A stretch of 64,000 bases of DNA from Candidatus Uhrbacteria bacterium (GCA_016187515.1 JACPJN010000006.1:128856-192855); one strand, 5' to 3'. Positions 13,987 to 63,182 are shown, numbered from the stretch's first letter. Made by a program: numbers and translations. The notes: generated by a model from the sequence alone, not told the origin.

Positions 13987-14009
13987 TTGTCTCGCTTGAC
14001 TTGCATGAT

Positions 14010-15028: not shown

Positions 15029-15076
15029 ACAACCTGATTTACTTGATTTACCCGTGATTTACCTGTCTCGCTTGAT

Positions 15077-34760: not shown

Positions 34761-35942
34761 CTAGAGCATACTCCACGCGCGAAAAGTGTCAAGCATTTTC
34801 TGCGCTGATTTTTGCCAAGAAAATTCCTGCGCGCGGACGTAGCCGGCTTCAATGTAATGCCGCCGCACCTCATTGTCTTCCAAAAGCACCCGCATCCCCG
34901 CGGCAATTTCATCCGTTTTCCACGGACTGACCAGCACCGCGCCGTTGCCGCAAATCTCGGGCACGGAGGAGGCGGAGGAGGCCACGACCGGCACGCCCGC
35001 GGCCATGGCTTCGAGCGGCGGAAAACCAAATCCTTCATAAAATGAAGGATAAACAAAAAGACGCGCTCCGGCGTACAGGTCTATTTTTTGTTCCTCGGTT
35101 GGATTCTCGATTAAACGGATGCGCTCGCGCAATTTGCTTTGGGCAATACGTTTTTTTAAGCGCTTTGTATAAGGAGTGGCCAAACCGGCGATCCACAATT
35201 GCTCCCGCGGTTTCAGTGCCTCGTATGCGGCAATCAACCCTTCAATATTTTTCCGCGGCTCCAGCGCGCCGAAATATAATATGAAGTCATCAGTCATCGG
35301 TTCACAGTTCACGGTTTTAGTTTTAATGTGAACTGTTGACTGTGAACTATTGACTCCACCTCCGGGATAGATCACGCTGATCTTCTTCGGCGGTATTCCA
35401 TACGTCTCCATCAAATCGTCCTTGGTATGCCTCGACACCGCGATAATATGATCGGCGCGTTTCAAAAGCGCGCGCGGACCGATGGCGCGATGCCAAAGCC
35501 GGCTTTTCAGCGAAAAATGTTCAGGGAAATGTATAAACGATAGGTCGTGAATAGTTAGAATGAGCTTGGTGCGCGATGGAAGCGCGATGAAATTCAGGTT
35601 GGGCATGAAAAAAATATCTAGACCCCCTCTAACTCCCCCTCGGAGAGGGGGAGAAACGATACGATTTCCTCCCCTGCCCGAGGGGAGGTTAGGAGGGGTG
35701 GGAGCACCAAACACCTTCATCCCTACATTCAACGCCTTATTCGGCCATCTTGTGTGATACACGCGCGCATTTGGATATTCGGAAAACTCCGGCACGGATA
35801 ATTTTCCTGCCGCGTTGTACCACACCACATACTCATTGACGCGATCCAACTCAAAAAGCGCGCGCAGAAGATGATAAGTATACTGCCCCACACCGCTTCT
35901 GGGCGTACTCTGCAGCGCGCGGCCGTCAATTGCTATTCTCAT
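34761..35942 (-). CDS. glycosyltransferase family 4 (GT-B, retaining)
   Basis: EGFGFPPLEAMAAGVPVVAS is the GT4 E-x7-E region. An in-frame GC-rich palindromic element at 35622-35706 encodes PPNLPSGRGGNRIVSPPLRGGVRGGLD. Confidence 0.85.
   Translation of the reverse strand: MRIAIDGRALQSTPRSGVGQYTYHLLRALFELDRVNEYVVWYNAAGKLSVPEFSEYPNARVYHTRWPNKALNVGMKVFGAPTPPNLPSGRGGNRIVSPPLRGGVRGGLDIFFMPNLNFIALPSRTKLILTIHDLSFIHFPEHFSLKSRLWHRAIGPRALLKRADHIIAVSRHTKDDLMETYGIPPKKISVIYPGGGVNSSQSTVHIKTKTVNCEPMTDDFILYFGALEPRKNIEGLIAAYEALKPREQLWIAGLATPYTKRLKKRIAQSKLRERIRLIENPTEEQKIDLYAGARLFVYPSFYEGFGFPPLEAMAAGVPVVASSASSVPEICGNGAVLVSPWKTDEIAAGMRVLLEDNEVRRHYIEAGYVRAQEFSWQKSAQKMLDTFRAWSML
35622..35706. repeat. GC-rich composite palindromic element, reference copy (gaccccctctaactccccctcggagagggggag...cctcccctgcccgaggggaggttaggaggggtgggag)
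   Basis: Two internal dyads: CCCCCTC..GAGGGGG and CCTCCCC-TGCCCGA-GGGGAGG. About 90 percent identical to 62860-62938 and to the reverse complement of 11795-11890. Confidence 0.75.
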
Positions 35943-35956: not shown

Positions 35957-37078
35957 TTATAAGAGCTTCGCTCTTGTATGTCCGCCTTGAAACTCCCCGT
36001 AGGCGCGCTCCACGTATCCTTGCATCCGCGTTTTAAATTCCGGCAAATCAAACTGCCGCGCCCAGGCGCGAATTTCCTCCGGCTGATATTCTTCCGGCTT
36101 AAAATTAGTAACCGCGTCAAGGAGCGTCTCCCATTTCTGTTCATAAAAAAACTTACCGGTTTTACCCTCCCGCACGGTCTCCAGCGCCCCGCCGCGCCCA
36201 TAGGCCACCACTGGCCGGCCCGACGCCATGGCTTCGAGCGGCAGCAATCCGAGGTCCTCGAGTTGCGGATGTAAAAACGCCACGCACTCGGAGAGCAGTT
36301 GGGACTTTTCTTTATCGGAAACGTGTCCTAAGAATTTGATATTTTTCTTGGCCATTTTTCTCAAGGGCTGCTCATACGGCCCGCGTCCAAAAATTAAAAG
36401 CGGCCAGCCCAGGCGATTAAATGCTTCAATCGTCAAATCAAAACGCTTATAAGCCACCAGCCGCCCGCCGGCCAGAAAATAATTTCCGACCTTGCGGCTG
36501 ACATAAAATTGCGAACAATCCACCGGCGGATAGATTACCTCGGCCTCGCGATCATAGTATTTTTTAATCCGCTTGGCCACGGTCTGCGAATTAGCCAGAA
36601 AGCGATCCACGCGCAAGGCGCTCGTGCGATCCCACATGCGCAGAGAAGTGAGTAGAAAAGGAAGGGCAAATTTAATGGCGCGGTTCGTGCGCAAGTCCTT
36701 AATATAACTATGGGTCTCGGTCCAAAGATACCGGGTGGGCGTGTGACAGTAGGAAATATGCAAGGCGTCCGGACGAGTAACGACGCCCTTGGCAAAAGCC
36801 GAAGAAGAGGAAAGTACCGCGTCAAATTCTCCCAGATCATGGTGCTCGGTAGCGGCCGGCATGAGCGGAAGCGTCCACCGATAGTAACGCAGCACCCCGG
36901 GCAGTCCTTGGAGCACCGAGGTATGCATATCCCGCTCTTTAAATTCTCTGCCCCAGCGCTTTTTATCGTAAAAAAGCACAAAGATCGGAGCGTTCGGCCA
37001 AATTTGCGAAAACGCCCGCAGTACCCGTTCGGCTCCCCCGTCTTGGATCAAATAATCGTGCACTAAAGCGAGTTTCAT
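35957..37078 (-). CDS. glycosyltransferase family 4
   Basis: MKLALVHDYLIQDGGAERV ... LEDLGLLPLEAMASGRPVVAYGRGGALETV. Confidence 0.85.
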   Translation of the reverse strand: MKLALVHDYLIQDGGAERVLRAFSQIWPNAPIFVLFYDKKRWGREFKERDMHTSVLQGLPGVLRYYRWTLPLMPAATEHHDLGEFDAVLSSSSAFAKGVVTRPDALHISYCHTPTRYLWTETHSYIKDLRTNRAIKFALPFLLTSLRMWDRTSALRVDRFLANSQTVAKRIKKYYDREAEVIYPPVDCSQFYVSRKVGNYFLAGGRLVAYKRFDLTIEAFNRLGWPLLIFGRGPYEQPLRKMAKKNIKFLGHVSDKEKSQLLSECVAFLHPQLEDLGLLPLEAMASGRPVVAYGRGGALETVREGKTGKFFYEQKWETLLDAVTNFKPEEYQPEEIRAWARQFDLPEFKTRMQGYVERAYGEFQGGHTRAKLL

Positions 37079-37090
37079 ATCACAATCAAT

Positions 37091-37205
37091 TCCCCCCTCT
37101 TAAGTTAAGAGGGGGTAGGGGGAGTTATGCCTGTCCGTCTTAGACGAAAGCATACATCATGTTTCATAACCCCTCCCCGCCTCCCCTTATCTTAAGGGGA
37201 GGAGA
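37091..37205. repeat. pair of palindromes (ccccctcttaagttaagaggggg ... ccccttatcttaagggga) in the divergent spacer
   Basis: Read directly from the sequence. The first palindrome is identical to the one inside the carboxypeptidase gene at 12781-12803. Confidence 0.6.
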
Positions 37206-37308
37206 TTGTTTTACGTTACGTTACATTAACACGATCCACCCAGAAAAACAACCCACAACTCATCCCCTGGACAATAAAAACTCCATGTACTACTATACCC
37301 AATGTAGT

Positions 37309-39084
37309 ATGAAAGGCGTTATTTTGGCGGGCGGCTCCGGGAGCCGGCTCATGCCCAACACTAAAGTCACCAACAAACACCTGCTGCCGGTTTACAATAA
37401 ACCGATGATTTATTACGCGATTGAGACGCTCCTGCGCGCCGGCATTCGCGATATTCTTATTTTACCCGGAAAAGAACAAGCCGGCGGGTTTGCTCAACTG
37501 CTCGGATCCGGGTCGGATTTTAACGCCAACTTTACTTACCGCGTGCAAGACAGCGCCTCCGGGCTCGCCTACGCGGTCGGCCTGGCCGAGCCGTTTGTTG
37601 GCCAGGATTGTTTTATGGTCGTCTTTGGCGACAATATTATTCTTGACGATCTTACCCGCGACGTTGCCGAATTTAAAGCCGGCGCGAAAGTATTTCTCAC
37701 TAAGGTTCCGGACCCTTCGCGGTATGGTATCGCCGAACTGGCGGGAGAGAAAGTCGTGCGCATTATTGAAAAACCGACCAACCCGCCCTCGGACTGGGCC
37801 GTAGTGGGCGCTTATCTTTATGACGGGCGGGCTTTTGAATTTATCCGGGGACTCACGCCCTCCGCCCGCGGGGAGCTGGAAATTACCGATCTTAATAATA
37901 AGTACATCGACTCCGGGGCCATGCAAGCCGGATTTCTTAAAGAACCCTGGTTTGACGCCGGCACCCATGAATCCCTGGTTGAGGCGGCCGCCGCGATCCG
38001 CGATATGCGCCGTCCGGTTGAACGCATCAAAACCGTAAACTCGCCGGCGCCCAAAGTGGCCGCCGGAGTTATTCTGGCAAACTCGCGCGCGTATCTGCCT
38101 AAATTTTTTGAGACGCTCCGCGCGCAAGATTACCGAAATCTCGAGCTGATTGCCTTTGACAGTAATACCGAAACCGAAAATGAAGACCTCGCTTTTATTA
38201 AAGCCAATTTTCCGGAGGTAACCATACTGCGCGCCGCCGCTCCAGCAGGAACCTCTGCCGCGCATAACCAAATCATTCAGCAGGCGGCGCTGCAGAACGC
38301 GGAATTCTATCTTACTCTGCACCCCGAGATGATTCTGGAGCAAAATTTTGTTTCTGAACTGGTCAACACCGCGCTCCGTGATCCGCAGTGCGCCGCAGTA
38401 GGCGGAAAACTCAAGCAATGGCACCTATTTAGCGAGCGCGCCTACGGCGGAGCCGGGACGACCAACTTTCTGGAAAGCACGGGGGTATTGATCACGCGCG
38501 AACATCGTTTTATCAACCGCGGAGAAGGAGAAATTGATCATGGCCAATATGACCAGGATTGCGCAGTGTTCGGGGTCAGCGGAACTGCGGCGCTCTACCG
38601 CATTTCCGCGTTAAAATCCATCGCGTTTATCAATGAATCCGGCCGCGCCGAATATTTTGATGAACTCCTGATCTTTAAATACAAGGAAGACGTGGATGTG
38701 GCGTATCGGCTGCAACTGGCCGGATACCGCGCGCTGTACAACCCCCGCGCGGTGGCTTACCACGACTACACCAGCATCCATCACGGCCGCGGGATGCTCG
38801 CGACCGTCCGCCGGCGGCGGCAAAAAACGCGCCGCTACAAAGAGTGGTCCTTTATCAACCACCATATTATTCTTTCCAAGTATCTGGGCGGTCTTTCCGG
38901 GGGAGTGGTCCGATCCACTTTTCTCTACGAACTCAAAGCGCTGATCTATTCCATCCTGCTTGAACCGTATCTATTGCCGCAATTCCTGCGGCTGGCCAAA
39001 ATGAGCCGCCAAATCGCCCAGCGCAAACTCCAGCTCCAGCGCTACGCGCCGAACTTTACACACATTGAGCGGTGGATGGTGTGA
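37309..39084 (+). CDS. fusion of sugar-1-phosphate nucleotidyltransferase (RmlA-like) and glycosyltransferase family 2
   Basis: N-terminus MKGVILAGGSGSRLMPNTKVTNKHLLPVYNKPMIYY is the G1P thymidylyl/uridylyltransferase signature. The C-terminal half has a GT2-like region (VILANSRAYLPKFFETLRAQDYRNLELIAFDSN ... DVDVAYRLQLAGY). Start taken at ATG 37309 within ORF-track 37159..39084. Confidence 0.75.
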   Translation: MKGVILAGGSGSRLMPNTKVTNKHLLPVYNKPMIYYAIETLLRAGIRDILILPGKEQAGGFAQLLGSGSDFNANFTYRVQDSASGLAYAVGLAEPFVGQDCFMVVFGDNIILDDLTRDVAEFKAGAKVFLTKVPDPSRYGIAELAGEKVVRIIEKPTNPPSDWAVVGAYLYDGRAFEFIRGLTPSARGELEITDLNNKYIDSGAMQAGFLKEPWFDAGTHESLVEAAAAIRDMRRPVERIKTVNSPAPKVAAGVILANSRAYLPKFFETLRAQDYRNLELIAFDSNTETENEDLAFIKANFPEVTILRAAAPAGTSAAHNQIIQQAALQNAEFYLTLHPEMILEQNFVSELVNTALRDPQCAAVGGKLKQWHLFSERAYGGAGTTNFLESTGVLITREHRFINRGEGEIDHGQYDQDCAVFGVSGTAALYRISALKSIAFINESGRAEYFDELLIFKYKEDVDVAYRLQLAGYRALYNPRAVAYHDYTSIHHGRGMLATVRRRRQKTRRYKEWSFINHHIILSKYLGGLSGGVVRSTFLYELKALIYSILLEPYLLPQFLRLAKMSRQIAQRKLQLQRYAPNFTHIERWMV

Positions 39085-39153
39085 GAGAAAAAAAAGAAAG
39101 CCCGGGCCGTGCGCACAGGCATTACCAAACAATTAAATTTCGTCAACTGATCA

Positions 39154-39453
39154 CTATTCCGGAATCATTTTTTCTGGATTCAAGAGTCCGCGCACCTTGT
39201 CTCGAATCCCTGCGGTGTTGGTGATGAAACCAAGCAAGGCCTGGTCAGCCCTCACCCCTTCAATCCGTCCGATGAGCTCTGCCGCAGGATAGTCACGGTG
39301 CCCCCCGGGGATGGTGTCAAACCCTTCAAGTACCTCATACAATAGATCAAAACTCGCAGCGCGCGAAACTGCTTCTTTTCTCTCTGGGGTCTGCCAGGCC
39401 TCAACCATGGCTGCCCTGGTCCCTTCTTCTGGTCGCATATTGTTAAACAGCAT
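39154..39453 (-). CDS. hypothetical protein
   Basis: 99-aa ORF. No family recognised. Confidence 0.35.
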   Translation of the reverse strand: MLFNNMRPEEGTRAAMVEAWQTPERKEAVSRAASFDLLYEVLEGFDTIPGGHRDYPAAELIGRIEGVRADQALLGFITNTAGIRDKVRGLLNPEKMIPE

Positions 39454-39481
39454 TGTATCAATACGTTCCTTTTTGTGTCAA

Positions 39482-39543
39482 GACCGCCAGCGGGGTTTTA
39501 AGTAAGATGATAAGGTCGAGCTTTAAGGACCAGTGTTCCATGT
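39482..39543. repeat. 62-bp direct repeat, copy 1 (a duplicate of the 3' terminus of the sugar-transferase gene)
   Basis: gaccgccagcggggttttaagtaagatgataaggtcgagctttaaggaccagtgttccatgt is identical apart from 1 nt to 40739-40800. In the minus frame it encodes MEHWSLKLDLIILLKTPLAV, which is the C-terminus of the 40715..42148 product. Confidence 0.8.
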
Positions 39544-39554
39544 GTGTTGGAAGT

Positions 39555-39920
39555 TTATGGCACAATACAAATAAGTGTGGGAATTTTTGTAAACTTCTTA
39601 TCGCGAGTTACGAGTGGTGCATGTGCTTGCAATGCAGTGGCTGCGATCACAGCATCCGCAGTGGCTAATGCATAGGTGCGTCGAATATGGGCTGCCTCAC
39701 GTGCAAGGGATGGCGTAAGGTCAAATAAGCTGGCGGATTGGAGGAATACCTCGATTTCTTGGGTGTGCGCCTCGGTGATGGCCGGGTACCCCAGTAATTC
39801 CACCACCACGATCGTAGGAAGTGCAATATCTTCGTCTAATCCCCTCGTATCAATACAATCCATGAGGGCTTGATCGTCACCGAGATATCCTATCACCGCG
39901 TTGGTATCGAGCATGAGCAT
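39555..39920 (-). CDS. vapC: PIN-domain toxin VapC
   Basis: MLMLDTNAVIGYL ... D..E ... TRDKKF carries the PIN acidic residues. It lies immediately downstream of the small antitoxin-like gene. Confidence 0.75.
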   Translation of the reverse strand: MLMLDTNAVIGYLGDDQALMDCIDTRGLDEDIALPTIVVVELLGYPAITEAHTQEIEVFLQSASLFDLTPSLAREAAHIRRTYALATADAVIAATALQAHAPLVTRDKKFTKIPTLICIVP

Positions 39921-39939
39921 AACAAAAACTTGCTACTGT

Positions 39940-40185
39940 TCAATGGGAAAGACGCGCATCACTCTCAGCTCGAATTCGCTGCTGATAAGCAAGGGGGTCT
40001 TCGGTAAGTTTGCCCTTAAGGAGTCCACGAAGTTTCCGGAGCGCTTCGTAATTACGAGGAATATGGGGCTCACGGGTTTTACTTACGCCTACCCGCTCCT
40101 TAAGACGATGCAGAAGCCGATCAATTTCATCAAGCTCAAGGCGTAGTTTGTCAGTATCAGTGGTTGTAGAAACAGAATGTTGCAT
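39940..40185 (-). CDS. antitoxin partner of VapC (81 aa)
   Basis: Small charged protein. Its stop lies 20 nt before the vapC start, giving the typical type II TA gene order. Confidence 0.55.
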   Translation of the reverse strand: MQHSVSTTTDTDKLRLELDEIDRLLHRLKERVGVSKTREPHIPRNYEALRKLRGLLKGKLTEDPLAYQQRIRAESDARLSH

Positions 40186-40294
40186 ATGTTGTTATCATAA
40201 CACGGGCAACTCTTTTTTGTCAAATTTTGAAATTTAAAAAAGCCCCGGCCGACGCGCACGCGATGTGCACACCGAACCAAGACGTAAGGACGAC

Positions 40295-40527
40295 CTATTC
40301 GCGTCGTAGCTTCTCCCATCGCGCCTCATGACGATCCGCGGCGCGCCATTCTAGGAGCGCAACCACGATCCCGCTCAGGGCACAGACGCTCATGAACTTT
40401 GCCAGCGCCCAGGCAAAGTCCGGGTCGATCTGGTGTTTCCGAAGCAGAACGACTTCCCAAGCAATTACGCCAAGCGAAAGGAAGAAAGCCACCATTCCGG
40501 CGATTGCCATGATGCGATGGTGAGACA
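40295..40527 (-). CDS. small membrane protein (77 aa, 2 TM)
   Basis: MSHHRIMAIAGMVAFFLSLGVIAWEVV ... SVCALSGIVVALLEW, with a GGAGGGTAC Shine-Dalgarno motif upstream. A further 42-aa membrane ORF (MTRTAQKRAMPGWFDVAWKISVALTYLYIANLLVPVLKRLAN) lies just upstream at 40542..40671. Confidence 0.45.
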
Positions 40528-40714
40528 TGGGTACCCTCCGATCTAGTTGGCCAGCCTCTTGAGGACTGGAACGAGCAAGTTGGCGATGTAGAGGTACGTA
40601 AGGGCGACGGAAATCTTCCACGCCACATCGAACCATCCTGGCATCGCTCGTTTCTGCGCTGTTCTTGTCATCTTGTCTCCTTGATGTACATCGTAACACA
40701 CAACGAGGCACCTG

Positions 40715-42148
40715 TCAATAAGTGCCTCGTTGTCCCGCGACCGCCAGCGGGGTTTTAAGTAAGATGATGAGGTCGAGCTTTAAGGACCAGTGTTCCATGT
40801 AGTAGGTATCCAAGCGCGTCTCTTCGTCAAACGAAAGATCAGCGCGGCCGGAGATTTGGGCCAGTCCGGTCATTCCGGGATTGATTCTCATAATTTTTTT
40901 CTGATGTTTTTCATACTGCGCAACCTCTTCTGGAAAATGCGGTCGCGGACCCACGAGAGACATTTTCCCCGCCAGCACTAAAAACAACTCCGGCAATTCA
41001 TCAATTGACCACTTGCGGATCAATCGGCCTACAGCCGTGATGCGCGGATCCTCGGTATCTTTGAATTTTACCAGCGGCCCTTTGCGGATATCCAAATGCT
41101 TAAGTTCTTTGTAGCGCATTTCATGGGTATCCGGTTTCATCGAACGAAACTTCACATATTGAAACCTCTTACCGCCCTGGCCCACGCGAGGATACTGAAA
41201 TAATATTGATCCTCGCGAGTCAAGTTTAATTGCCAGCGCGGTAAGGAGCATGATCGGGAAAGTAACAATAATCAAAAGTAACGCGCCGATAATATCAAAA
41301 ATCCGCTTATAAACTCTTCCCCAACCTTCGAGCCGCGTGCGCTTAATTTCCATAAGCGGCACCCCGGCCAGCGTATCAAACTCCAGTCCGGCGCCGTGCG
41401 TTGCCAGTACGTCGGCGGAATAACGAAACGCAAGATGGTACTCGTCGGCAAGATCAAGAATTCTATGCAAATCGTCCCCGCCGTTTTGGGAAAGCGCGAT
41501 AATCTGGTCTAATCCGCCCCGCGCGGCAAGCGCGCGCAACTGAAGTTCAGCATCTTTGTTTAATGTTTCTGCGTGGAATACCACTTTGAGTCCATACTTT
41601 GGATTATGCTTGATCATTCCCAGAAGCGCTTGCGCAGAAGATCCGCGGCCAATCACTGCCACGCACTGAAGTCCTACTCCGGCACGCAAGAGTCCACTGC
41701 GAACCACGCGCAGAATTATCCGAGCCATACTGACAAATACGATCGCAAATCCCCAGGATACTAAAAGAATGAACCGTGATTCAAACAATTCGCGGGAAAA
41801 CACGATTACGGCGAGCACCGCGCCAAGCCCGGCGGTGGAAGCCACCACCACCTTTTTAAACTCCTCCAGTTTTTTGCGTCGGCCAATGGTATACAGACCG
41901 GAAAGCGCGAAAATAATAATCCAGCCAAGCGCAATAAGCGCTGCCGCTTTCAGATACAGCTCAAAGGGCAAATTGAATATCACTGGCCGCCGAGCAACCG
42001 CAAATTCCGCATGACGCAGCGCATAAGCTGCAAGCGCGGCCAAAAGCAACGCCGCATAATCCAGAGGGACGAGAATCGTCGTAAAAAAGAGATCTAATCT
42101 CCGCATAAATGGTTGTTGTAGTGTATCATTGGTTAGACCGCTTGACAA
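40715..42148 (-). CDS. polyprenyl-phosphate sugar phosphotransferase (WbaP/bacterial sugar transferase family)
   Basis: N-terminal TM helices followed by the C-terminal catalytic domain KRIFDIIGALLLIIVTFPIMLL...SRGSILFQYPRVGQGGKRFQYVKFRSM...GPRP. Confidence 0.88.
   Translation of the reverse strand: MSSGLTNDTLQQPFMRRLDLFFTTILVPLDYAALLLAALAAYALRHAEFAVARRPVIFNLPFELYLKAAALIALGWIIIFALSGLYTIGRRKKLEEFKKVVVASTAGLGAVLAVIVFSRELFESRFILLVSWGFAIVFVSMARIILRVVRSGLLRAGVGLQCVAVIGRGSSAQALLGMIKHNPKYGLKVVFHAETLNKDAELQLRALAARGGLDQIIALSQNGGDDLHRILDLADEYHLAFRYSADVLATHGAGLEFDTLAGVPLMEIKRTRLEGWGRVYKRIFDIIGALLLIIVTFPIMLLTALAIKLDSRGSILFQYPRVGQGGKRFQYVKFRSMKPDTHEMRYKELKHLDIRKGPLVKFKDTEDPRITAVGRLIRKWSIDELPELFLVLAGKMSLVGPRPHFPEEVAQYEKHQKKIMRINPGMTGLAQISGRADLSFDEETRLDTYYMEHWSLKLDLIILLKTPLAVAGQRGTY
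40739..40800. repeat. 62-bp direct repeat, copy 2 (the native 3' terminus of the sugar-transferase gene)
   Basis: See 39482-39543. Confidence 0.8.
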
Positions 42149-42170
42149 GTACGGCGTAGTATGCTATACT
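42143..42170 (+). promoter_or_regulatory. sigma70-type promoter of rnpB (TTGACA - 16 nt - TATACT)
   Basis: cttgacaagtacggcgtagtatgctatact reads directly as a consensus -35/-10 pair. The transcript would start near 42177. Confidence 0.6.
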
Positions 42171-42177: not shown

Positions 42178-42963
42178 GTACCCTGAAAACCGGATGATCG
42201 CCCCCACACCTATCAGACACAGTGACGCACAGCGTCAAAACAGGACCTAGGTATACAGGTGTTGATGAAAAGCATCGTTTGCCAGTTGAACAAGACAGAC
42301 TTGCTTACTAGTGTCTGAAAGGTGTGGGGGAGGAAAGTCCGAACACCCCAACCAGTGCTTCGCACTGGAAATTCCAAGCACCAAGCACCAAATACCAAAA
42401 AAATCCCAAACTAAAAATTCCAAATCACAAACTTGGAATTTGGGATTTGGAGATTGAATATTGTCTGGAATTTGGAAATTGTGATTTGGGATTTCCAGCG
42501 CGGAGCGCTGGCGGAAGTAGGTACCAGCTAACGGCTGGGCATCCTGCTCGGCATAACACATAAAGCCGGCTGACGGATTAGTGCCACAGAGACAATACTA
42601 CCCCCACACCTATCAGACACTTTGGCGCGAAGCGCCACAAGAGCCTAACCATACGGAAGTTCTTGCTGAATACAACTGCCAGTCGAATAAGACAGGATGT
42701 GCATGTACAAGGTGCCTGAAAGGTGTGGGGGGAAAGGTGAAAAGTGAGGTGGTGTTTATCGCTTAATTCCACTCTAAAGGTGGCGTAAACGAGGAAGCTA
42801 CACCTCTTGCTCCCGAGTAATCGGGATGCGTGGAAAACCCTACCTGGTGCAAGTCGTATAACCGACGCATGAGGCCCCGCGTAAGCGGGGTCCCAGAGAG
42901 ATGATCATCCAGTCCCGCGGACGCGGGACGGACAGAATTCGGCTTACAGGTTTTCTTGGTACG
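42178..42963 (+). ncRNA. rnpB: RNase P RNA (bacterial type A core) with greatly expanded P3, P5.1-region and P12 helices (about 786 nt)
   Basis: CR-I GGAGGAAAGTCCGAACACC is at 42329. A P5.1-like UUCG hairpin ccagtgcttcgcactgg follows. Then CCAGCTAACGGCTGGG (a P8-like GNRA-type hairpin). Then AGTGCCACAGAGACAATAC (cf. E. coli AGUGCAACAGAGAGCAAAC). Then a CR-II-like GGTGAAAAGTGAGGTGG. CR-V ACAGAATTCGGCTTA is at 42932. P1/P2 pairing joins 5' GTACC/GAAAACC with 3' GGTTTTC/GGTAC. The expansions are 42201-42330 (P3 position), 42365-42500 and 42601-42731 (P12 position). Confidence 0.65.
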
Positions 42964-43456: not shown

Positions 43457-44122
43457 CTATGATATGGTGGCCCGCACTACCCCACGCTGTCTGATCGTTC
43501 CGTCTTCATTCAAAACGGCGGCCTTCACTAAGTCCACGGTTTCGGCCATCAGATGGGGCGAACCACTTTCTTCCGCAAAAAATGCTGCCATGTTCGAATA
43601 CAAGGAATGTAGGGGTACGGCAAATTCTATCTTTCCTCTATCTGGTTGACGAACCGTAACCACCAGCACACCCGGATTATCCCCATGCACCCTGGTGCCC
43701 AAGAAATCCTGTCCCAAAGCTGACTTGAGATACGCATCCAACTTTTTGGGATCATTACGATTTATTCCACCTCTCTCATTGTAAAATGCTCTCCAACCCT
43801 GAAGTAATGCGACGGGAGTTAACACTTCTGCTGGGGGTCGTTCTGGGGGGCGTACTGAAGCAATTCCACTTCTCTCGGCAGGAGGACCGACGGCGAGCGG
43901 CTTGCGAAGATTGTTTAGTATTTGCTCGACACCGTCCCTCACTACCTGTTCTGGTATTTTGCTTAAATCCACCTTAAATAATCGTGCAAAATCATCCCTG
44001 ACCATTCTAACTAATCCTTTAAGCGCCTTTTCCGTCTCCGCCGGACTTGGTTCTGTTTCGCCGACCGGTAACGTATCTTGTTTTATTTCGGGCAGTGGAC
44101 CACCTGATCTTTCGGTTCGCAT
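43457..44122 (-). CDS. hypothetical protein, paralog of 46130..46741 (GWRAF(F/Y)NE..G ... VPLHSLYSN family)
   Basis: Shares LQGWRAFYNERGG...DPKKLD...G....V.....R..IEFAVPLHSLYSNMAAFF with the 46130 product. No known family recognised. Confidence 0.5.
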   Translation of the reverse strand: MRTERSGGPLPEIKQDTLPVGETEPSPAETEKALKGLVRMVRDDFARLFKVDLSKIPEQVVRDGVEQILNNLRKPLAVGPPAERSGIASVRPPERPPAEVLTPVALLQGWRAFYNERGGINRNDPKKLDAYLKSALGQDFLGTRVHGDNPGVLVVTVRQPDRGKIEFAVPLHSLYSNMAAFFAEESGSPHLMAETVDLVKAAVLNEDGTIRQRGVVRATIS

Positions 44123-44608: not shown

Positions 44609-44695
44609 CATGTTTTTAGACAAGCCCCATCTTCTTCTTGACCTCCTGAGGGGTTTTTTGTGCCAGTGGTCGGGCGCGGCGCCGGATGTAATTAT
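44609..44695 (-). pseudogene. degenerate duplicate of the trpS 3' terminus (encodes IGYNYIRRRARPLAQKTPQEVKKKMGLV*)
   Basis: Compare genuine TrpS C-terminus KKARPIAQKTLEEVKKKMGLT*. The DNA is also similar: gacaagccccatcttcttcttgacctcctgaggggttttttg versus gtcaaccccatttttttcttcacctcctcaagagttttttg. Confidence 0.7.
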
Positions 44696-44970
44696 ATCCG
44701 ATCCATGTATCGGTAAATCCAATGGTGTGGTCCGACAGTCAAAAAATAGATAGTAGTCGTATCCTTAAAACGGAACAATACTCGATAATTTTCGTCAATA
44801 CGGAAACTCCACACCTCTTTAGCTTTAGGGTGGAGTTTTTCGGTATCCAGAGAAGTATGAAACGGATTGGCACGGAATAACGTTTCCCGCCGTTCTGCTT
44901 TCTTTTGAATGTGGAGTGGCAATTCCGAGTAGCGGCGCTCAAATTCCTCCGTATAGAAAATTGTAATCAC
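44692..44970 (-). CDS. RelE/ParE-family type II toxin
   Basis: KLHPKAKEVWSFRIDENYRVLFRFKDTTTIYFLTVGPHH matches the RelE/ParE core pattern (R..YR...R.....I.....GPH..Y). Preceded by a small antitoxin-size gene. Confidence 0.6.
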   Translation of the reverse strand: MITIFYTEEFERRYSELPLHIQKKAERRETLFRANPFHTSLDTEKLHPKAKEVWSFRIDENYRVLFRFKDTTTIYFLTVGPHHWIYRYMDRI

Positions 44971-44980
44971 ACGGCTACGG

Positions 44981-45187
44981 CTACGCGCGAAGATCGCGGA
45001 GACTTTTTAGCTTTCTGACTCGGCCAGCGCGAATATCTGCCTCCGCACGATCAATACTGGCAATAAATTCATTGCCAAAAAACCCCAAAGAATCAGCCAA
45101 TCGCTCAAAACCATGACGATCCATTTCCACAGAAATCTTTCTGGGGGTTTTCTGAATAATCGTAAGGGGTAGGGTGGTAGTGCTCAT
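44981..45187 (-). CDS. antitoxin partner of RelE/ParE toxin (68 aa)
   Basis: Small gene 11 nt upstream of the toxin gene on the same strand. Confidence 0.5.
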   Translation of the reverse strand: MSTTTLPLTIIQKTPRKISVEMDRHGFERLADSLGFFGNEFIASIDRAEADIRAGRVRKLKSLRDLRA

Positions 45188-45253: not shown

Positions 45254-45300
45254 ACTACAGGGTCAATCCCATTTTCTTTTTCACCTCTGTCTTTTTTGGC
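45254..45300 (-). pseudogene. second degenerate duplicate of the trpS 3' terminus (encodes ...KKTEVKKKMGLTL*)
   Basis: gtcaatcccattttctttttcacctctgtcttttttgg aligns to the genuine trpS end at 46804-46850. Confidence 0.65.
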
Positions 45301-46129: not shown

Positions 46130-46741
46130 TCAGTGCACGCTGACCCTAACAAGCCCTCTCTTTTTAACTTCCCCATCCTCAAATTCCGCGGCCTCAAGTA
46201 AATCGTCAACTTCAGCTAACATTAGATTTGTTTTATCGTCTGCCTCAAAATGACTAGCAAAATTGGAATATAAGCTGTGGAGTGGCACTCCAAATATCCT
46301 CATCCTCTGACCCACGCGAACTTGTATTTGGGCAACACCAGGTTGACTATAATCCGGCCGAATACTAACCAAACGATCTCCCAATTTGCTCCGTAGTTCT
46401 TGCTCCAATTTTTTAATATCATTTTGATACCGTCCTTTTTCTGCATTAAAGAACGCTCGCCATCCTGTAAGAATCTCCGTTGGGGTACCTGCTTCTACGG
46501 ATTCGCGGACCTCAGCAGTGCTCCCACCTACATTTCCCAGCTTCGGCATTGTTTCCGTGCGCTTTCCTGAGCTAGCGCGTAACTGGGTCATCATTTCTGC
46601 TAGGCCGCGCTTAATTATCTCGTCTGGAATTGCGTCGTTCGGAATCCCCGCATTCATCGCGAGATACGAACGAATACTCTCCGTGGCTCTACCGCGGAGT
46701 TCTTCAATATAAGCGTCCTCTCCCTCCCTATGTTCTAACAT
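46130..46741 (-). CDS. hypothetical protein, paralog of 43457..44122
   Basis: LTGWRAFFNAEKGRYQNDIKKLEQELRSKLGDRLVSIRPDYSQPGVAQIQVRVGQRMRIFGVPLHSLYSNFASHF. See the paralog for details. Confidence 0.5.
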   Translation of the reverse strand: MLEHREGEDAYIEELRGRATESIRSYLAMNAGIPNDAIPDEIIKRGLAEMMTQLRASSGKRTETMPKLGNVGGSTAEVRESVEAGTPTEILTGWRAFFNAEKGRYQNDIKKLEQELRSKLGDRLVSIRPDYSQPGVAQIQVRVGQRMRIFGVPLHSLYSNFASHFEADDKTNLMLAEVDDLLEAAEFEDGEVKKRGLVRVSVH

Positions 46742-46803: not shown

Positions 46804-47862
46804 CTATGTCAACCCCATTTTTTTCTTCACCTCCTCAAGAGTTTTTTGAGCAATGGGACGAGCTTTTTTTGAACCGGCGTCAAGTACTTCTTCCACGTAT
46901 CCTTTCTTCTTCTCCAGTTCGCGACGGCGTTTTTGGATTGGCTCTAAAAATTTCACTACCGCTTCGGCAAGTCCCGCTTTAAACTCGGCATATCCTTTAC
47001 CCGCGTATTGTTTTTCAAGTTTAGAAATTGGCAGACCGGAAACTTCCGAGTAAATCGTAAGTAAATTGGTTAGCGCGGGTTTGTCGTTTCCGGATTTGAT
47101 CTCGCGGCCGGAATCGGTAACCGCGGTTTTTATTTTCTGCCGCACCTCATCCGAACTATCGGAAAGCGCAACGCCTTCATCACCTGTTTTGGACATTTTC
47201 TTTTTCGGATCTTTGAGCGACATGATGCGCGCGCCGTGTGTGAGCTCGGCTTTGACTGGAGGGAAAAACCCAGTGCTGTCATCCTGAGGAGTGGAACGAC
47301 GAAGGATCCCGTCCCTACTTCCACGGGATTCTTCGCTGCGCTCAGAATGACGAGATGGGGAAGCGAACATCCGATTAAACCGCCTCGCGATCATGTTCGT
47401 AAGTTCAATATGCGGAAGCTGATCCTCGCCAACCGGTACCAGATCGGCTTTGTAAATCAAAATGTCGGCGGCCATCAGCGCCGGATAGGCCAAAAGCCCC
47501 AAATTCACATATTCCGGGTGTTGCACGATTTTTTCTTTGTAGGTGGGCACGCGCTCAAACCAGGAAACCGGACTGATGGATTGAAAAATCCAGCCCAACT
47601 CCACATGCTCCGGCACCTGGGATTGCACGATAAGCGTCGCGCGCTTGGGATCAAGCCCGACCGCCAAATAATCCAGCGCCACCTCGCGCACATTTTCCCG
47701 CAGCTCCTCCGGCGAAAAAGGCGTGGTAATTGCGTGATAATCCACGATTGCATATATACAATCGTGCTTTTCTTGAAGCGTAATCCAATTTTTGATCGCG
47801 CCCAAATAGTTGCCGAGGTGCAGTCGGCCTGATGGGCGGATGCCGGAGAAAACACGGGTCAT
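46804..47862 (-). CDS. trpS: tryptophan--tRNA ligase
   Basis: HIGH region SGIRPSGRLHLGNYLG and KMSKS region KKMSKTGD. Contains a roughly 33-aa in-frame insertion (SPSRHSERSEESRGSRDGILRRSTPQDDSTGFF) encoded by a palindromic element at 47268-47345. Confidence 0.9.
   Translation of the reverse strand: MTRVFSGIRPSGRLHLGNYLGAIKNWITLQEKHDCIYAIVDYHAITTPFSPEELRENVREVALDYLAVGLDPKRATLIVQSQVPEHVELGWIFQSISPVSWFERVPTYKEKIVQHPEYVNLGLLAYPALMAADILIYKADLVPVGEDQLPHIELTNMIARRFNRMFASPSRHSERSEESRGSRDGILRRSTPQDDSTGFFPPVKAELTHGARIMSLKDPKKKMSKTGDEGVALSDSSDEVRQKIKTAVTDSGREIKSGNDKPALTNLLTIYSEVSGLPISKLEKQYAGKGYAEFKAGLAEAVVKFLEPIQKRRRELEKKKGYVEEVLDAGSKKARPIAQKTLEEVKKKMGLT
47268..47345. repeat. second palindromic insertion family (gtcatcctgag ... 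ctcagaatgac) in-frame in trpS
   Basis: Inverted termini gtcatcctgagg / cgctgcgctcagaatgac. A half-copy gtcatcccgagcgcagcgagggatc lies at 335-360 upstream of dprA. Confidence 0.55.
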
Positions 47863-54841: not shown

Positions 54842-55207
54842 ATGCCGTTTAGATTTGAGGATTTGCGAGTATACCAGCGTACTCTCGAACTTGTTGACCA
54901 TATCTATGATGTTGTGGATAAATTCCCTACTCACGAACTATACACCCTCTCGTCGCAGTTACGGCGTGCTGTAATCTCAATTCTTTTAAACATAGCGGAG
55001 GGTACAGGACGAACCAACAAGGAATTCGCGCATTTTGTAGACATGTCAAGAACTTCTGCATACGAATGCATCGCATGTTTGGCGATCGCGCTACGTCGAA
55101 AATACATCACGCAACAATCCTATGAAACACTCTATGCTGAAATAAACGAGATTGTGAGAATGCTTAATGCCCTCAAAAATAGTATCAACAACAATACGGT
55201 GAACTGA
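54842..55207 (+). CDS. four-helix-bundle protein (23S rRNA IVS / Avd-like family), third copy
   Basis: [53 protein letters not shown] matches the family consensus closely. Confidence 0.8.
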
Positions 55208-62202: not shown

Positions 62203-63182
62203 ACGAATTCTCGGCGAGTGCCGCTTAAATCCTTAAACGCAATTTTCCGCGCATGCAACATGAGCCGGCTTGATTTACCTGTCTCGCTTGATTTACTTGA
62301 TTTACTGCGATACAGCGTATCGCCGACAATCGGATGCCCAATGGCTTTTAAGTGTACGCGAATCTGATGCGTCCGGCCAGTGCGGGTCCGGATCGCGAGA
62401 AATGTCACCCTCCCCTTCATCCCCTCCCATCGAGGGAGGGGGATCGTTTCGTACTCGGTCACGGCCTGTCTTCCCTTCCCCCCTTTTGGCCGCGCCACCA
62501 TCCGCGCGCCTTTGCGCGCCACGACAAATTCAATCACGCCCTGCGGCGGAATGACCGCGCCATTTACCGCCGCGACATATTCTTTTTCAACCTCATGCAT
62601 TTTAAATTGCTTTTTTAAATGATCAAACATATCCTGGGTACGGGCGATAACCATGACTCCGGAAACGTCGGCGTCAAGCCGATGCGCAATGCCCGGACGG
62701 ATTGGATCATCGCCGACTTTTCCAAGCTCGGGATACCGTGCCAGCAATCCATTAACCAGGGTATCCGGGGCTTTATGGCCTGCGCCTTGATGAACGACCA
62801 GGCCAGCGGGCTTGTTCACGACAATAAAATCCGGTTCTTCGTGGAGTACCCATGCCAGACCCCCTCTCACTCCCCCTCCGAGAGGGGGAGAAACAATTTT
62901 TCCTCCCCTGCCCGAGGGGAGGTAAGGAGGGGTGGGAGTACAATTAACGATTTGTACCTCCGGATTTGGCACCACCCGCAAATCCTCCGGTGGCTCGATT
63001 ACTGCCTCCACCTCATCACCCATGCGTAAAAAATGGTGCGGCGTGATGCGTTTGCTGTTTACCGTAACTTGTCCGTCTTTGACCATCCTTTGCAAATGCG
63101 CGCGCGAAAACTCCGGCAAATATTCTTTCAGAAACTTGTCGAGTCGTTGACCTTGATGTTCAATCGTAATTAAGAAATCCAT
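62172..63182 (-). CDS. RluA-family 23S rRNA pseudouridine synthase (RluD-like) with N-terminal S4 domain
   Basis: S4 region RLDKFLKEYLP. Catalytic motif HRLDADVSGVMVIARTQ. Two in-frame repeat-derived inserts: the GC-rich palindromic element at 62860-62938 and the TTGATTTACTTG repeat at 62265-62310 (encoding SKSSKSSETGKSS). A further GC-rich tract lies at 62404-62475. Confidence 0.85.
   Translation of the reverse strand: MDFLITIEHQGQRLDKFLKEYLPEFSRAHLQRMVKDGQVTVNSKRITPHHFLRMGDEVEAVIEPPEDLRVVPNPEVQIVNCTPTPPYLPSGRGGKIVSPPLGGGVRGGLAWVLHEEPDFIVVNKPAGLVVHQGAGHKAPDTLVNGLLARYPELGKVGDDPIRPGIAHRLDADVSGVMVIARTQDMFDHLKKQFKMHEVEKEYVAAVNGAVIPPQGVIEFVVARKGARMVARPKGGKGRQAVTEYETIPLPRWEGMKGRVTFLAIRTRTGRTHQIRVHLKAIGHPIVGDTLYRSKSSKSSETGKSSRLMLHARKIAFKDLSGTRREFVCPEPEEFLL
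62860..62938. repeat. GC-rich composite palindromic element, near-identical to 35622-35706
   Basis: gaccccctctcactccccctccgagagggggagaaacaatttttcctcccctgcccgaggggaggtaaggaggggtgggag. Confidence 0.75.

Follow-up and report, generated by a model that had tools for sequence, protein, structure and literature searches.

The locus described here raises the question of how a toxin-antitoxin pair came to lie between two copies of the end of a sugar-transferase gene. It belongs to a Candidatus Uhrbacteria (CPR/Patescibacteria) genome, and by the window we mean the whole 64,000-nucleotide stretch analysed, which is part of a 356-kb contig. Between the two copies of the transferase end lie VapC, an 81-aa partner and two membrane-protein ORFs of 77 aa and 42 aa, all on the minus strand, just as the original prediction had described the interval (Table 1). 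NCBI holds an identical 463-aa transferase from a Candidatus Uhrbacteria MAG; the start used here is the 15th codon of the longest ORF. We show the anatomy of this locus, its native gene order, the recurrence of the arrangement at other sites and, for the window, the lack of mobility genes. The explanation we propose, to which we assign about an even chance, is that recombination, in register on the gene side, brought a small non-autonomous addiction cassette into the final 86 nt of the transferase gene.

Table 1. Features of the locus, of its neighbourhood and of the trpS island (positions in the window).
Feature	Position	Strand	Description
GT4 glycosyltransferase	35957..37078	-	Context; usual next gene after the transferase
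NTP-transferase/GT2 fusion gene	37159..39084	+	Context; Pfam NTP_transferase 2.8e-52 plus GT2
99-aa ORF	39154..39453	-	Native downstream neighbour of the transferase; homologue of the L041/L039 93-aa ORF
Predicted Sigma70-like promoter	39452..39481	-	TTGACA-18-TACAAT, TG; 11/12; inside displaced tail, reads into 99-aa gene
Displaced native transferase terminus	39458..39543	-	Core 39482-39543; tail LTQKGTY; stop 39458-39460
11-nt spacer	39544..39554	-	vapC stop to displaced copy; right junction of the insertion
VapC, PIN-domain ribonuclease toxin	39555..39920	-	121 aa; Pfam PIN 9.5e-17
81-aa putative antitoxin	39940..40185	-	VapB-like by position; ends 19 nt before vapC
Predicted Sigma70-like vapBC promoter	40194..40223	-	TTGACA-18-TATGAT, TG; 11/12 match
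Intrinsic terminator past 77-aa gene	40236..40283	-	GC hairpin plus UUUUUU; -25.7 kcal/mol, z = -2.46
77-aa ORF	40295..40528	-	Two predicted TM helices (KD hydropathy); GGAGGG ribosome-binding site
42-aa ORF	40543..40671	-	One predicted TM helix; AAGGAGA ribosome-binding site
Predicted Sigma70-like promoter	40690..40718	-	TTGACA-17-TACGAT, TG; 10/12 match; overlaps transferase stop
Predicted perfect 14-bp hairpin	40700..40733	-	Left arm, in-gene tail; right arm, cassette DNA
In-gene alternative tail	40715..40738	-	AGQRGTY; stop TGA at 40715-40717
In-gene 62-nt core	40739..40800	-	Codons MEHWSLKLDLIILLKTPLAV; 61/62 identical to 39482-39543
Polyprenyl-phosphate sugar transferase	40715..42106	-	Target gene; 463 aa; Pfam Bac_transf 7.1e-60
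Outer displaced trpS terminus	44620..44675	-	ARPLAQKTPQEVKKKMGLV, then stop; 76% over 51 nt to 46813-46863, in frame with stop
YoeB/RelE-type toxin and 68-aa partner	44692..45187	-	Toxin 92 aa; between displaced trpS termini
Inner displaced trpS terminus	45259..45287	-	EVKKKMGLTL, then two stops; 88% over 26 nt to 46808-46833
Current trpS terminus	46804..46863	-	Last two codons and stop TTG ACA TAG; TTGACA is a -35 box

Alignment of 39482-39543 with 40739-40800 gave identity at 61 of 62 positions, the sole mismatch being A at 39512 versus G at 40769. The 62-bp repeats and their single mismatch were thus predicted correctly; they are, however, subterminal: the last base of the gene is 40715, and the repeat runs on to 86 nt (39458-39543 versus 40715-40800, 77/86 identical), spanning the final 28 transferase codons and the stop. 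Self-BLAST of the window found the core in just two copies (E = 3e-24), the chance expectation for pairs as similar as these being about 4e-26. The mismatches are uneven, with one in the 62 nt of the core and eight in the 24 nt of the tail (Fisher p = 1e-4), and the repeat is therefore not the simple 62-bp target-site duplication that had been claimed; what has been duplicated is the gene terminus in full, 86 nt, with the left junction in register. Each copy stays in frame up to a stop codon, the gene ending in PLAVAGQRGTY and the displaced copy in PLAVLTQKGTY, and their spacing is 1257 bp (62 nt at 98% or 86 nt at 90% identity). The in-gene core itself showed no significant RNA structure (z = +1.1).

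Transferase homology breaks off abruptly at 39543/40800, and sensitive tblastn and blastn searches of 37079-40714 with the transferase returned the 28 terminal codons as the sole match; the displaced copy is therefore not a decayed pseudogene. The check that had been proposed for a longer transferase pseudogene was thus negative, and segmental duplication of the transferase followed by decay, which also has to contend with a vapC ending 11 nt from the copy, is refuted by this search and carries hardly any weight. Direct repeats flanking an insert would suit a transposon-type target-site duplication, and the variable repeat of a diversity-generating retroelement likewise sits at a gene 3' end, but the chance that the copies are such a target duplication, or a template/variable repeat pair, is negligible. 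A random target duplication could not account for the start of the insert, a genuine transferase tail in the correct register, and the repeat, at 62-86 nt, is in register with the gene. No inverted repeats were found at the cassette ends and no transposase in the cassette; adenine stands in the displaced copy at four of the nine mismatches, so there is no adenine-specific pattern; and no reverse transcriptase was found nearby, the two bAvd-like genes in the window lying 15-25 kb from the repeats. An integron gene cassette was also rejected, since we found neither an attC-like imperfect palindrome at the cassette boundaries nor IntI in Pfam scans.

It is very improbable that the arrangement is an assembly artefact, in which the assembler threaded into the chromosome a small molecule, circular or amplified, that has the core in common with an empty chromosomal site. 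Logan unitigs from other sequencing runs carry the cassette at 100% identity (L037, and L043 in 15 samples) and break precisely at the 31-mers common to both repeat copies; unitigs of k = 31 that end inside the repeat would look the same for the integrated form and for a circle plus an empty site. The copies nevertheless differ at a fixed position and in their tails, the assembled junctions are of the recombinant attL/attR type, and ordinary 150-nt reads span a 62-nt repeat. Moreover, the cassette has no replication gene, and homologous VapBC genes are chromosomal beside the GT4 gene in three other assemblies.

Transferase orthologues were found at 36 Patescibacteria loci. The transferase is adjacent to GT4 in 26 related loci, with a spacer of at most 20 nt in 11 of these. 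In two relatives (L041 and L039, at 64% protein identity), the order is transferase, 93-aa ORF and GT4, with a single transferase terminus, and the 99-aa ORF of the window is 52% identical to this 93-aa ORF (E = 3e-24). The 99-aa ORF had no family match, and its true start is probably an internal ATG. The displaced copy lies 5 nt from it, which is the native junction as seen in L041/L039; its tail is identical to the L041 tail at 20 of 24 positions, and its LTQKGTY peptide is the actual terminus of another relative (P0015). These relatives show what would be the native order, namely transferase, 99-aa gene and GT4, and the comparison supports the predicted insertion of a cassette at the transferase 3' end, bounded by the duplicated gene end. 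Searches for a conspecific or near-identical allele of the empty site found none. With the nearest transferases at 81% and no more than 75% identity, the polarity of the event has to be judged from remoter relatives. The NTP-transferase/GT2 fusion gene was absent between transferase and GT4 in all relatives examined and is a second, separate extra at this junction.

The proposed cassette would consist of two units, one encoding the membrane proteins (42 aa and 77 aa) and one encoding VapBC, each with its own predicted promoter. NCBIfam VapC equivalog models match VapC below their cut-offs, and PDB entry 7by2, 'Ribonuclease VapC', matches at 9e-4. The acidic residues D5, E41, D89 and D107 are invariant in eight homologues, and the toxin looks intact as judged from its sequence. 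The 81-aa putative antitoxin had no Pfam, NCBIfam or PDB relative; it is co-conserved with VapC in four lineages at 57-66% identity, contains the invariant motif LRKLRG.L.GKL.EDPL.YQQRIR and has its own predicted promoter. The 42-aa and 77-aa proteins, for which a comparison with type I toxins and holin-like peptides had been proposed, gave no significant match in Pfam, NCBIfam, PHROG or PADLOC, whether to families of type I toxins, of holins, of phage proteins or of defence proteins. For the 77-aa protein (HYW17_01955 in the NCBI annotation), a search of 1.84 billion representatives returned one homologue only (P0128, 46% identity), with the same two-TM layout; it is an orphan family. A 44-nt stretch of the terminator region is 86% conserved upstream of vapB in the L044 relative.

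The in-gene tail and the displaced tail are identical at 16 of 24 positions. The former is one of the forms covered by x[GT]Q[KR]GTY, the pattern over which transferase ends vary naturally, and its GGCACTTATTGACAG is also found in two relatives, L042 (15/15) and L049 (14/15). Going by the tail type and post-stop sequence of L049, the in-gene tail could be the resident and the displaced segment the newcomer. Under the proposed insertion, because the left junction is in register, the transferase would now be completed by an alternative but genuine transferase tail, and the original terminus would persist 1.26 kb downstream as a direct repeat, still next to the 99-aa gene, which natively follows it.

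Both termini may be in use. In the predicted hairpin, the in-gene tail would pair with the 14 nt that open the cassette DNA, and the loop contains the transferase stop codon and the cassette promoter's -35 box; 40690-40805 folds at -40.9 kcal/mol (z = -4.07), with 0 of 200 shuffles as stable, and the arms pair at 14/14 positions with the in-gene tail versus 10/14 with the displaced tail swapped in. The promoter at 40690-40718 is predicted to drive the 42-aa and 77-aa genes. A like arrangement, with TTGACA overlapping the stop, is present in L041 and L042, in both of which a further gene comes after the transferase; L049 has the hexamer too, with a weaker -10, and the arrangement is absent where GT4 directly follows. 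The displaced tail, for its part, would supply a promoter for the 99-aa gene, and the -35 box of this promoter begins at the first diverged base past the core. Four of the eight tail differences fall in this -35 hexamer and four in the in-gene hairpin arm. Consensus matches of at least 11/12 number nine in the window versus 0.25 expected from shuffles, two of them in the cassette region and one in the last trpS codons. All promoters were called by consensus match and the hairpin by folding energy, and they are to be read as predictions only.

VapBC homologues that are 69-72% identical lie directly upstream of GT4 in three other lineages. In two of them (L044 and L045), transferase-end remnants of 14-16 nt follow immediately after the vapC stop, whereas in the third (L046) vapC directly adjoins GT4; a GT4 indel is common to the window, L044 and L046. 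A junction between vapC and a transferase fragment, as in L044 and L045, would also be expected from independent insertions of a site-specific element with the fragment as attP. At the DNA level, VapBC identity (71-75%) is roughly equal to that of the GT4 5' region (72-75%). Because the homologues share the junction in three lineages, two with decayed remnants, the insertion is probably old, and these comparisons suggest that it is clade-wide and vertically inherited. An 'active' mechanism is not supported, given VapBC pairs of about 70% identity at the same junction in three lineages, degenerate trpS copies (76% and 88%) and no near-identical empty-site allele. Were the insertion old, the displaced copy should have decayed as it has in L044, and the 61/62 identity therefore needs an extra assumption; in that case, the near-identical core would require gene conversion. 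A recent insertion would be the simpler account of that identity.

The opposite polarity, with VapBC and the membrane unit resident and the transferase-end fragment imported from a close relative together with the 99-aa gene (perhaps also a 641-aa gene), is improbable. Import would have occurred by homology-facilitated illegitimate recombination after natural transformation, with GT4 as the anchor and an illegitimate join just past vapC. The closest relative, L049 (81%), has the in-gene tail type, followed past the stop by the matching sequence TTGACAGGTGC, and its transferase precedes a gene for a small membrane protein; together with the direct contact of vapC and GT4 in L046 and a DprA gene in the window, which indicates competence, this would fit such an import, and neither a recombinase nor a duplication paradox would be required. 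However, the remnants in L044 and L045 lie at nearly the same post-vapC junction, where an illegitimate join would not recur, and a relative of the 99-aa gene sits natively beside the transferase in L041/L039. The imported core, moreover, would have to derive from a near-identical strain or from later conversion.

The cassette anatomy recurs at trpS and at two other Patescibacteria loci. At trpS, rightly named beforehand as a second site, the same anatomy is seen with two displaced termini and a YoeB/RelE pair; the toxin has HigB-like, ParE and YoeB Pfam matches and a TIGR02116 match at 9.4e-8, and a predicted promoter at the trpS end (11/12) reads into the island. In L048, a RelE-type pair is flanked by the two copies of a terminus duplication of 52 nt, and in L030 an RHH/PIN pair by those of a 41-nt 5'-end duplication. 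The targets differ entirely by site, being the transferase, trpS, a large gene in L048 and a GT 5' end.

A known counterpart is e14 at icd: in NC_000913.3, icd is duplicated over its final 165 nt, stop codon included, with 12 mismatches and two amino-acid changes. As in the cassette, homology is lost abruptly on the upstream side and the gene is completed by the copy from the element, leaving the native end as a pseudo-terminus, icdC. In contrast, e14 is 15.2 kb long with intE/xisE and phage genes, whereas the cassette is 1.2 kb without a recombinase, and icd/icdC mismatches are spread along the repeat, whereas those of the cassette are concentrated in the last 24 nt, with one in the core. Phage 21 is grouped with e14 as integrated in E. 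coli icd. Integrase-mediated, site-specific integration of this type, with a captured transferase 3' end as attP, is a possible but rather unlikely origin for the cassette, which would then be a deletion remnant with addictive and small genes, or a CIME-like satellite mobilised in trans by a recombinase from another locus. The insertion in the window may in that case be recent, directly accounting for the 61/62 identity, and the VapBC pairs of other lineages would be independent site-specific insertions. Beyond the anatomy shared with e14, the recurrence of the vapC/transferase-fragment junction in three lineages would fit, as would the serial, progressively degenerate trpS termini, which resemble arrays from repeated integration at one att site (tandem accretion). 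Yet no integrase, excisionase or transposase was found in the cassette, in the roughly 50 ORFs scanned in the window, in L048 or around the L030 cassette, and IMG/VR held no viral or mobile contig with the transferase-end fragment or a VapC relative. Of the marks of a recombinase-type site-specific element, the cassette and window thus have the in-frame 3'-end duplication and no recombinase. A tyrosine recombinase, in addition, needs no more than a short overlap, and a near-identical 62-nt block beside a 33%-diverged tail is unexpected for an independently evolving attP; the wholly different targets would also require several different site-specific recombinases.

CIMEs and tandem accretion have been described at tRNA/tmRNA genes, for example in Dehalococcoides ssrA islands; CIMEs are att-flanked elements with no integrase of their own, and their definition refers to a partner ICE or integrase that recognises the att sites (PMC5704250, PMC3146451). 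Like CIMEs, the cassette is a cargo-only segment bounded by direct repeats from a gene 3' end; unlike them, the cassettes have no known partner, use four different protein-coding targets and measure 0.6-1.3 kb. The cassettes of chromosomal integrons measure 0.5-1.3 kb, bear promoters and often encode TA pairs, which protect the surrounding DNA from being deleted. The present cassette is similar in size, promoters and TA content, but it has no attC-like site, IntI or array platform, and its boundaries are copies of the end of the adjacent host gene, which vary from one site to the next.

A second precedent is 'insertion with long target duplication', for which Nobusato et al. 2000 (Gene 259:99) is reportedly also a source. 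It has been described for restriction-modification units, mostly in naturally competent bacteria and by an unknown mechanism, with some repeats overlapping gene 3' ends (Furuta, Abe & Kobayashi 2010; PMC2853133). The pattern thus has known precedents in e14 at icd and in these units, and to call it 'unrecognised' was an overstatement. Furuta et al. required a complete unit, an insert of <20 kb, a duplication of >30 bp, no linked mobility gene, a unique repeat and an empty site (PMC2853133). Here, vapB and vapC both lie between the repeats, the spacing is far below 20 kb, the repeat of 62/86 nt exceeds 30 bp, and within the window there is no mobility gene and the repeat occurs in only two copies. 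For the empty site, L041/L039 offer the single terminus at 64% protein identity, in contrast to the restriction-modification studies, where a conspecific empty site, none of which was found for the cassette, is a criterion. Both cases thus involve a small addiction-type unit, a unique duplicated target and no transposase or integrase, and the DprA gene of the window parallels the competent hosts. The cassette differs in its cargo, a type II toxin-antitoxin pair with small membrane proteins, in its CPR/Patescibacteria host and in the duplication of a whole gene terminus, each copy with a distinct predicted function (hairpin and promoter versus promoter). Restriction-modification repeats have been proposed to permit amplification, which would also homogenise them (PMC2853133).

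Under the addiction-cassette insertion that we favour, the original event could have relied on the homologous recombination of the host, acting on an intermediate that was circular or taken up by transformation, or on an integrase supplied in trans. The core would have been kept near-identical through recombination between the repeats, by gene conversion or unequal crossing-over, while the tails would be held apart by their differing functions. The repeats would by themselves lead to precise deletion, against which VapBC addiction would select. A broader conjecture, which we regard as doubtful, is that Patescibacteria have a recombinase-independent route by which a TA unit with a captured piece of a conserved host gene end, its promoter embedded there, inserts in register at that gene in related genomes, through homologous recombination by the host once the DNA has been taken up.

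If this conjecture is true, long terminus duplication would preserve both the target gene and the promoter of its neighbour, and the repeats would let the cassette be amplified, excised and homogenised, with the toxin penalising its loss. On that view, TA pairs would be self-sufficient, homology-guided mobile cassettes, which would explain many isolated chromosomal TA loci without a mobility gene. The cassette is a real and recurrent footprint of the entry of addiction genes into genomes.

We aligned the two copies of the transferase end that bracket the 1.2-kb toxin-antitoxin cassette and found the predicted 62-nt repeat with its single mismatch (39482-39543 versus 40739-40800; A at 39512, G at 40769). 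A BLAST of the window against itself returned this pair at E = 3e-24 with no third copy in the 64 kb, and about 4e-26 pairs of such similarity would be expected by chance. The duplication does reach the end of the gene, but the 62 nt are subterminal and its length had been underestimated: 86 nt align (39458-39543 versus 40715-40800, 77/86 identical), corresponding to the stop codon of the minus-strand sugar-transferase gene and the 28 codons that precede it. Both copies are in frame to the stop, the gene ending in ...PLAVAGQRGTY and the displaced copy in ...PLAVLTQKGTY; what had been described as a 62-bp target duplication is instead a whole gene terminus duplicated in register. Upstream of a shared ATG, homology between the copies is absent, and the vapC gene ends 11 nt from the displaced copy. 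The mismatches are unevenly distributed, with 1/62 in the core and 8/24 in the tail, the last 24 nt through the stop codon (Fisher p = 1e-4). Selection on RNA structure as the source of the core identity was ruled out, because the core is unstructured (z = +1.1). The cassette was also recovered at 100% identity in Logan unitigs from other sequencing runs (L037; L043, 15 samples), which end exactly at 31-mers common to both repeat copies; SRR12113385 and SRR12113428 are among the public runs containing it.

The interval holds the genes claimed for it, namely vapC, its partner ORF, and the 77-aa and 42-aa membrane-protein ORFs, all on the minus strand. The PIN protein matched a VapC of known structure (PDB 7by2, 9e-4), and four of its acidic residues are unchanged across eight homologues. 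The 81-aa protein gave no match to an antitoxin family in Pfam, NCBIfam, or PDB, and a profile search against PDB returned nothing but noise; in four lineages it accompanies VapC (57-66% identity). No significant family match was found for the two membrane proteins in Pfam, NCBIfam, PHROG, or PADLOC, and only one homologue of the 77-aa protein is present among 1.84 billion representatives (46% identity, same layout). The interval is predicted to form two transcription units. Sites matching the promoter consensus at 11/12 or better number nine in the window against 0.25 expected and, because they are so rare, are probably real promoters.

Features at the transferase junction and copies of the dispersed repeat (window coordinates)
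Feature	Coordinates	Strand	Remarks
Sugar-transferase gene, 463 aa	40715-42106	-	Pfam Bac_transf 7.1e-60; 463-aa NCBI protein
Predicted promoter, 10/12	40718-40690	-	Over transferase stop codon; 42-aa and 77-aa genes follow
42-aa ORF	40543-40671	-	One TM helix
77-aa ORF	40295-40528	-	Two TM helices; HYW17_01955 in NCBI
Intrinsic terminator, clear	40283-40236	-	z = -2.46; after membrane-protein genes
Predicted promoter, 11/12	40223-40194	-	Ahead of vapBC
81-aa ORF	39940-40185	-	
PIN protein (VapC), 121 aa	39555-39920	-	Pfam PIN 9.5e-17
641-aa NTP-transferase/GT2 fusion gene	37159-39084	+	Separate extra; bounded by dispersed hairpin-repeat copies
G-rich double-hairpin repeat	11809-11890, 35621-35705, 62858-62938, 24519-24559		
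G-rich double-hairpin repeat, further sites	808, 8641, 9699, 19534, 37085-37208, 58137		

The surroundings of the cassette in this Candidatus Uhrbacteria (Patescibacteria/CPR) MAG were compared with related loci. In 26 of these, the glycosyltransferase gene GT4 (35957-37078 in the window) follows the transferase, with a spacer of at most 20 nt in 11/26; in the window, the two are 3.6 kb apart. Because loci L041 and L039 carry in their spacer a 93-aa ORF with 52% identity (E = 3e-24) to the 99-aa ORF of the window, we read the native order in the window lineage as transferase, 99-aa gene, GT4. Only 5 nt separate the displaced 86-nt copy from the 99-aa ORF, and the native junction has therefore been retained on that side. 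The displaced tail is closer to the tail of L041 than the in-gene tail is (20/24 versus 17/24), and the displaced-copy peptide LTQKGTY is the real terminus of a relative, P0015. Other small genes occupy the junction elsewhere (a 177-aa TM ORF in L042, a 154-aa ORF in L004, and a small TM ORF in L049), and it is evidently a variable spot. The 641-aa fusion gene, for which the ATG at 37309 is the likely start, is convergent to the surrounding operon and missing from the junction in all relatives examined.

The original prediction had read the cassette as inserted at the 3′ end of the transferase gene, and this reading proved right. The displaced copy is no part of a longer pseudogene: tblastn and blastn of the transferase against 37079-40714 recovered the 28 terminal codons only, which rules out a decayed full-length duplicate. 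A transposon target-site duplication, an integron attC site, and a DGR repeat pair were all ruled out by anatomy. Base composition carries no signal of foreign origin (GC 0.51 in the cassette versus 0.53 in the window). Among about 50 ORFs of the window that were scanned, we found no integrase or transposase; DprA is encoded. IMG/VR contained neither contigs with a fragment of the transferase end nor relatives of the VapC, exact-protein look-ups with the transferase, 99-aa, and 77-aa proteins yielded no further contigs, and a metagenome scan with a codon-degenerate core pattern returned five loci, none of them conspecific (0/5). As for the empty site proposed for comparison, relatives supplied the native gene order; the databases searched contained neither a conspecific empty site nor a near-identical transferase with the displaced tail, the best non-self match being 81% identical.

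Each of the two transferase termini seems to be used. The eight tail differences all (8/8) fall within two elements, a -35 hexamer and a hairpin arm, with four in each. The hexamer reads TTGACA in the displaced tail and GCGGGA in the gene copy, and TTGACA forms the -35 box of a predicted 11/12 promoter (39481-39452) whose start coincides with the first diverged base and which is directed into the 99-aa gene. The in-gene tail is fully complementary to the start of the cassette DNA (14/14 pairs with its first 14 nt, versus 10/14 for the displaced version), and a hairpin is therefore predicted at 40733-40700 (z = -4.07), with the stop codon and the -35 box of the cassette promoter in its loop. 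A TTGACA overlapping the stop also occurs in L041, L042, and L049, loci with another gene behind the transferase, and is missing in loci with GT4 directly after it. The last two codons and stop of trpS (TTG ACA TAG) likewise supply the -35 box of another predicted 11/12 promoter. Judged from sequence, gene termini in this compact genome serve the expression of the next gene, and termini carrying such signals would thus give a selective reason for the retention of insertions that duplicate them.

The original prediction had also proposed an active insertion mechanism. This was not borne out, and the evidence favors an old, vertically inherited insertion. In three other samples, VapBC homologues stand immediately ahead of the GT4 orthologue, and their VapC proteins are 69-72% identical. 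In L044, ATGGAACACTGGTC stands right behind the vapC stop and matches the start of the core before a decayed, frameshifted continuation; L045 has ATATACTACATGGAAC (I-Y-Y-M-E) behind vapC; L046 is without a remnant, vapC ending 2 nt from the GT4 start. A one-codon indel in GT4 is common to the window, L044, and L046 and missing in VapBC-free relatives, and DNA identity is similar for VapBC (71-75%) and the 5′ end of GT4 (72-75%). The simplest reading, toward which the evidence leans, is one old insertion in the clade ancestor followed by vertical inheritance. If the insertion is old, the 61/62 core identity is no sign of recency and would call for recombination between the repeats, either gene conversion or unequal crossing-over with collapse, with the differing functions of the tails keeping these apart. 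The 62-nt direct repeats would also invite precise deletion, against which VapBC addiction may select.

The second occurrence claimed at trpS (46804-47862) was confirmed. The distance from trpS to the RNase P gene is about 250 nt in L042 and 3.8 kb in the window, and the trpS C-terminus ...ARPIAQKTLEEVKKKMGLT is repeated in frame with its stop at 44620-44675 (ARPLAQKTPQEVKKKMGLV; 76% over 51 nt) and again at 45259-45287 (EVKKKMGLTL followed by two stops, in frame; 88% over 26 nt). These displaced termini flank a YoeB/RelE-type pair, an arrangement that is what would be left by successive insertions, each displacing the prior terminus. Two copies of the final ~50 nt of a large gene (52 nt, 87%) enclose a 714-bp RelE-type pair in L048, where a VapC gene adjoins, and an 849-bp RHH/PIN pair in L030 sits between two copies of the first 12 glycosyltransferase codons (41 nt, 98-100%). 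No recombinase genes were found near the trpS, L048, or L030 sites. The window and two other Patescibacteria loci thus contain at least four footprints of toxin-antitoxin cassettes of 0.6-1.3 kb with gene-end duplicates of 26-86 nt and no recombinase.

L030 belongs to a distant Patescibacteria genome, where two unrelated antitoxin/PIN pairs stand in tandem (3293-4846) within a polysaccharide gene cluster; the duplication at the second pair is perfect over 38 nt (41 nt at 98%), and its source is the 5′ end of the downstream glycosyltransferase. The locus of a more distant VapC homologue, L047, was rejected as unrelated and free of flanking repeats, and candidates from the repeat survey (L005, L013, L023, L025, and the trpS flanks of L041) proved to be paralogous gene ends, a duplicated promoter, or dispersed hairpin-repeat copies. 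Different segments of the trpS island hold paralogous ORFs of 221 and 203 aa (43457-44122 and 46130-46741), both ending in ...VPLHSLYSN..., and the island also holds coiled-coil ORFs of 256 and 104 aa; none of the four has a significant match in Pfam, NCBIfam, PHROG, or PADLOC. Across all cassette and trpS-island proteins, PHROGs and PADLOC gave no significant match, the 104-aa ORF having one marginal PADLOC match (E = 0.007). The trpS gene itself is lengthened by about 45 codons inserted in frame (47270-47404; ...SPSRHSERSEESRGSRDGILRRSTPQDDS...), at a position that is empty in L042 and taken by a different repeat-derived insert in L041.

Further features of the window were recorded. The Rfam bounds of the RNase P RNA gene are probably wrong: the RF00010 match (42446-42962; 106.9 bits versus a gathering score of 100) is aligned without the universal GAGGAAAGUCC motif, which lies at 42331-42346, downstream of a predicted 11/12 sigma70 promoter (42142-42170). 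The gene probably spans about 42180-42962; so extended, it would include about 170 nt of inserted AT-rich hairpin sequence (42350-42518), missing in L049, and two long hairpins with common sequence (42201-42330 and 42601-42731). The G-rich double-hairpin repeat, about 85 nt long and dispersed over the window (CCCCTCGGGCAGGGGAGG...), occurs in intergenic DNA and also in frame within coding sequence. Genes containing it include those for an RluD-like pseudouridine synthase, a metallophosphoesterase, and a GT1 glycosyltransferase, whose products gain about 28 residues from it (e.g., APTPPNLPSGRGGNRIVSPPLRGGVRGGL), an arrangement that recalls the palindromic elements of Rickettsia. The trpS gene of L041 has copies on both sides and a further one within it. 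Repeats with a period of 9 nt (ACTTGATTTAC-like) form arrays in several intergenic gaps (12904-15090 and 62267-62315) and bracket a 156-aa gene without assigned function, a methyltransferase gene, and the first of two bAvd-like genes (23S_rRNA_IVP/bAvd-like, 14609-15028). The other lies at 54842-55207, and no reverse transcriptase was seen. The DprA ORF (532 aa; 17-2069 with the next gene) has two separate DNA_processg_A stretches and is followed immediately by a PD-(D/E)XK nuclease gene (1599-2069).

To call the insertion mechanism unrecognized was an overstatement, as close precedents exist. The e14 element at Escherichia coli icd, by our measurement, duplicates 165 nt through the stop with 12 mismatches, loses homology abruptly upstream, and leaves a displaced pseudo-terminus, icdC; unlike the cassette, e14 encodes intE/xisE. 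Integrase-mediated integration is a viable alternative, as is reverse-polarity import through illegitimate recombination; the original insertion may have been made by host homologous recombination or by a recombinase acting in trans. Insertion with long target duplication is known for restriction-modification units, chiefly in naturally competent bacteria, and a cycle of insertion, amplification, and release has been proposed for them (PMC2853133). The cassette shows the published hallmarks of this process, save a conspecific empty site. In the searchable literature, the pattern is cited, not documented, for type II toxin-antitoxin pairs and unreported for Patescibacteria, and our searches for toxin-antitoxin cassettes of this architecture, in Patescibacteria or in general, returned nothing specific.

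The spread of toxin-antitoxin pairs among chromosomes without the help of transposases or integrases has long lacked an explanation in the field; such loci are mostly seen just wedged between conserved genes. Neither a new mechanism nor one that is currently active is demonstrated by these findings. What is new is the type II toxin-antitoxin cargo, the CPR host, the recurrence at four gene ends and, as predicted here, the doubling of duplicated termini as terminator and promoter modules. A pattern documented so far for restriction-modification units is now extended to type II toxin-antitoxin systems and to the CPR, and the findings point to a practical reason why only terminus-duplicating insertions would survive in very compact genomes, namely that gene termini there would also act as terminators and promoters for the following gene, and the duplication would keep both genes expressed.
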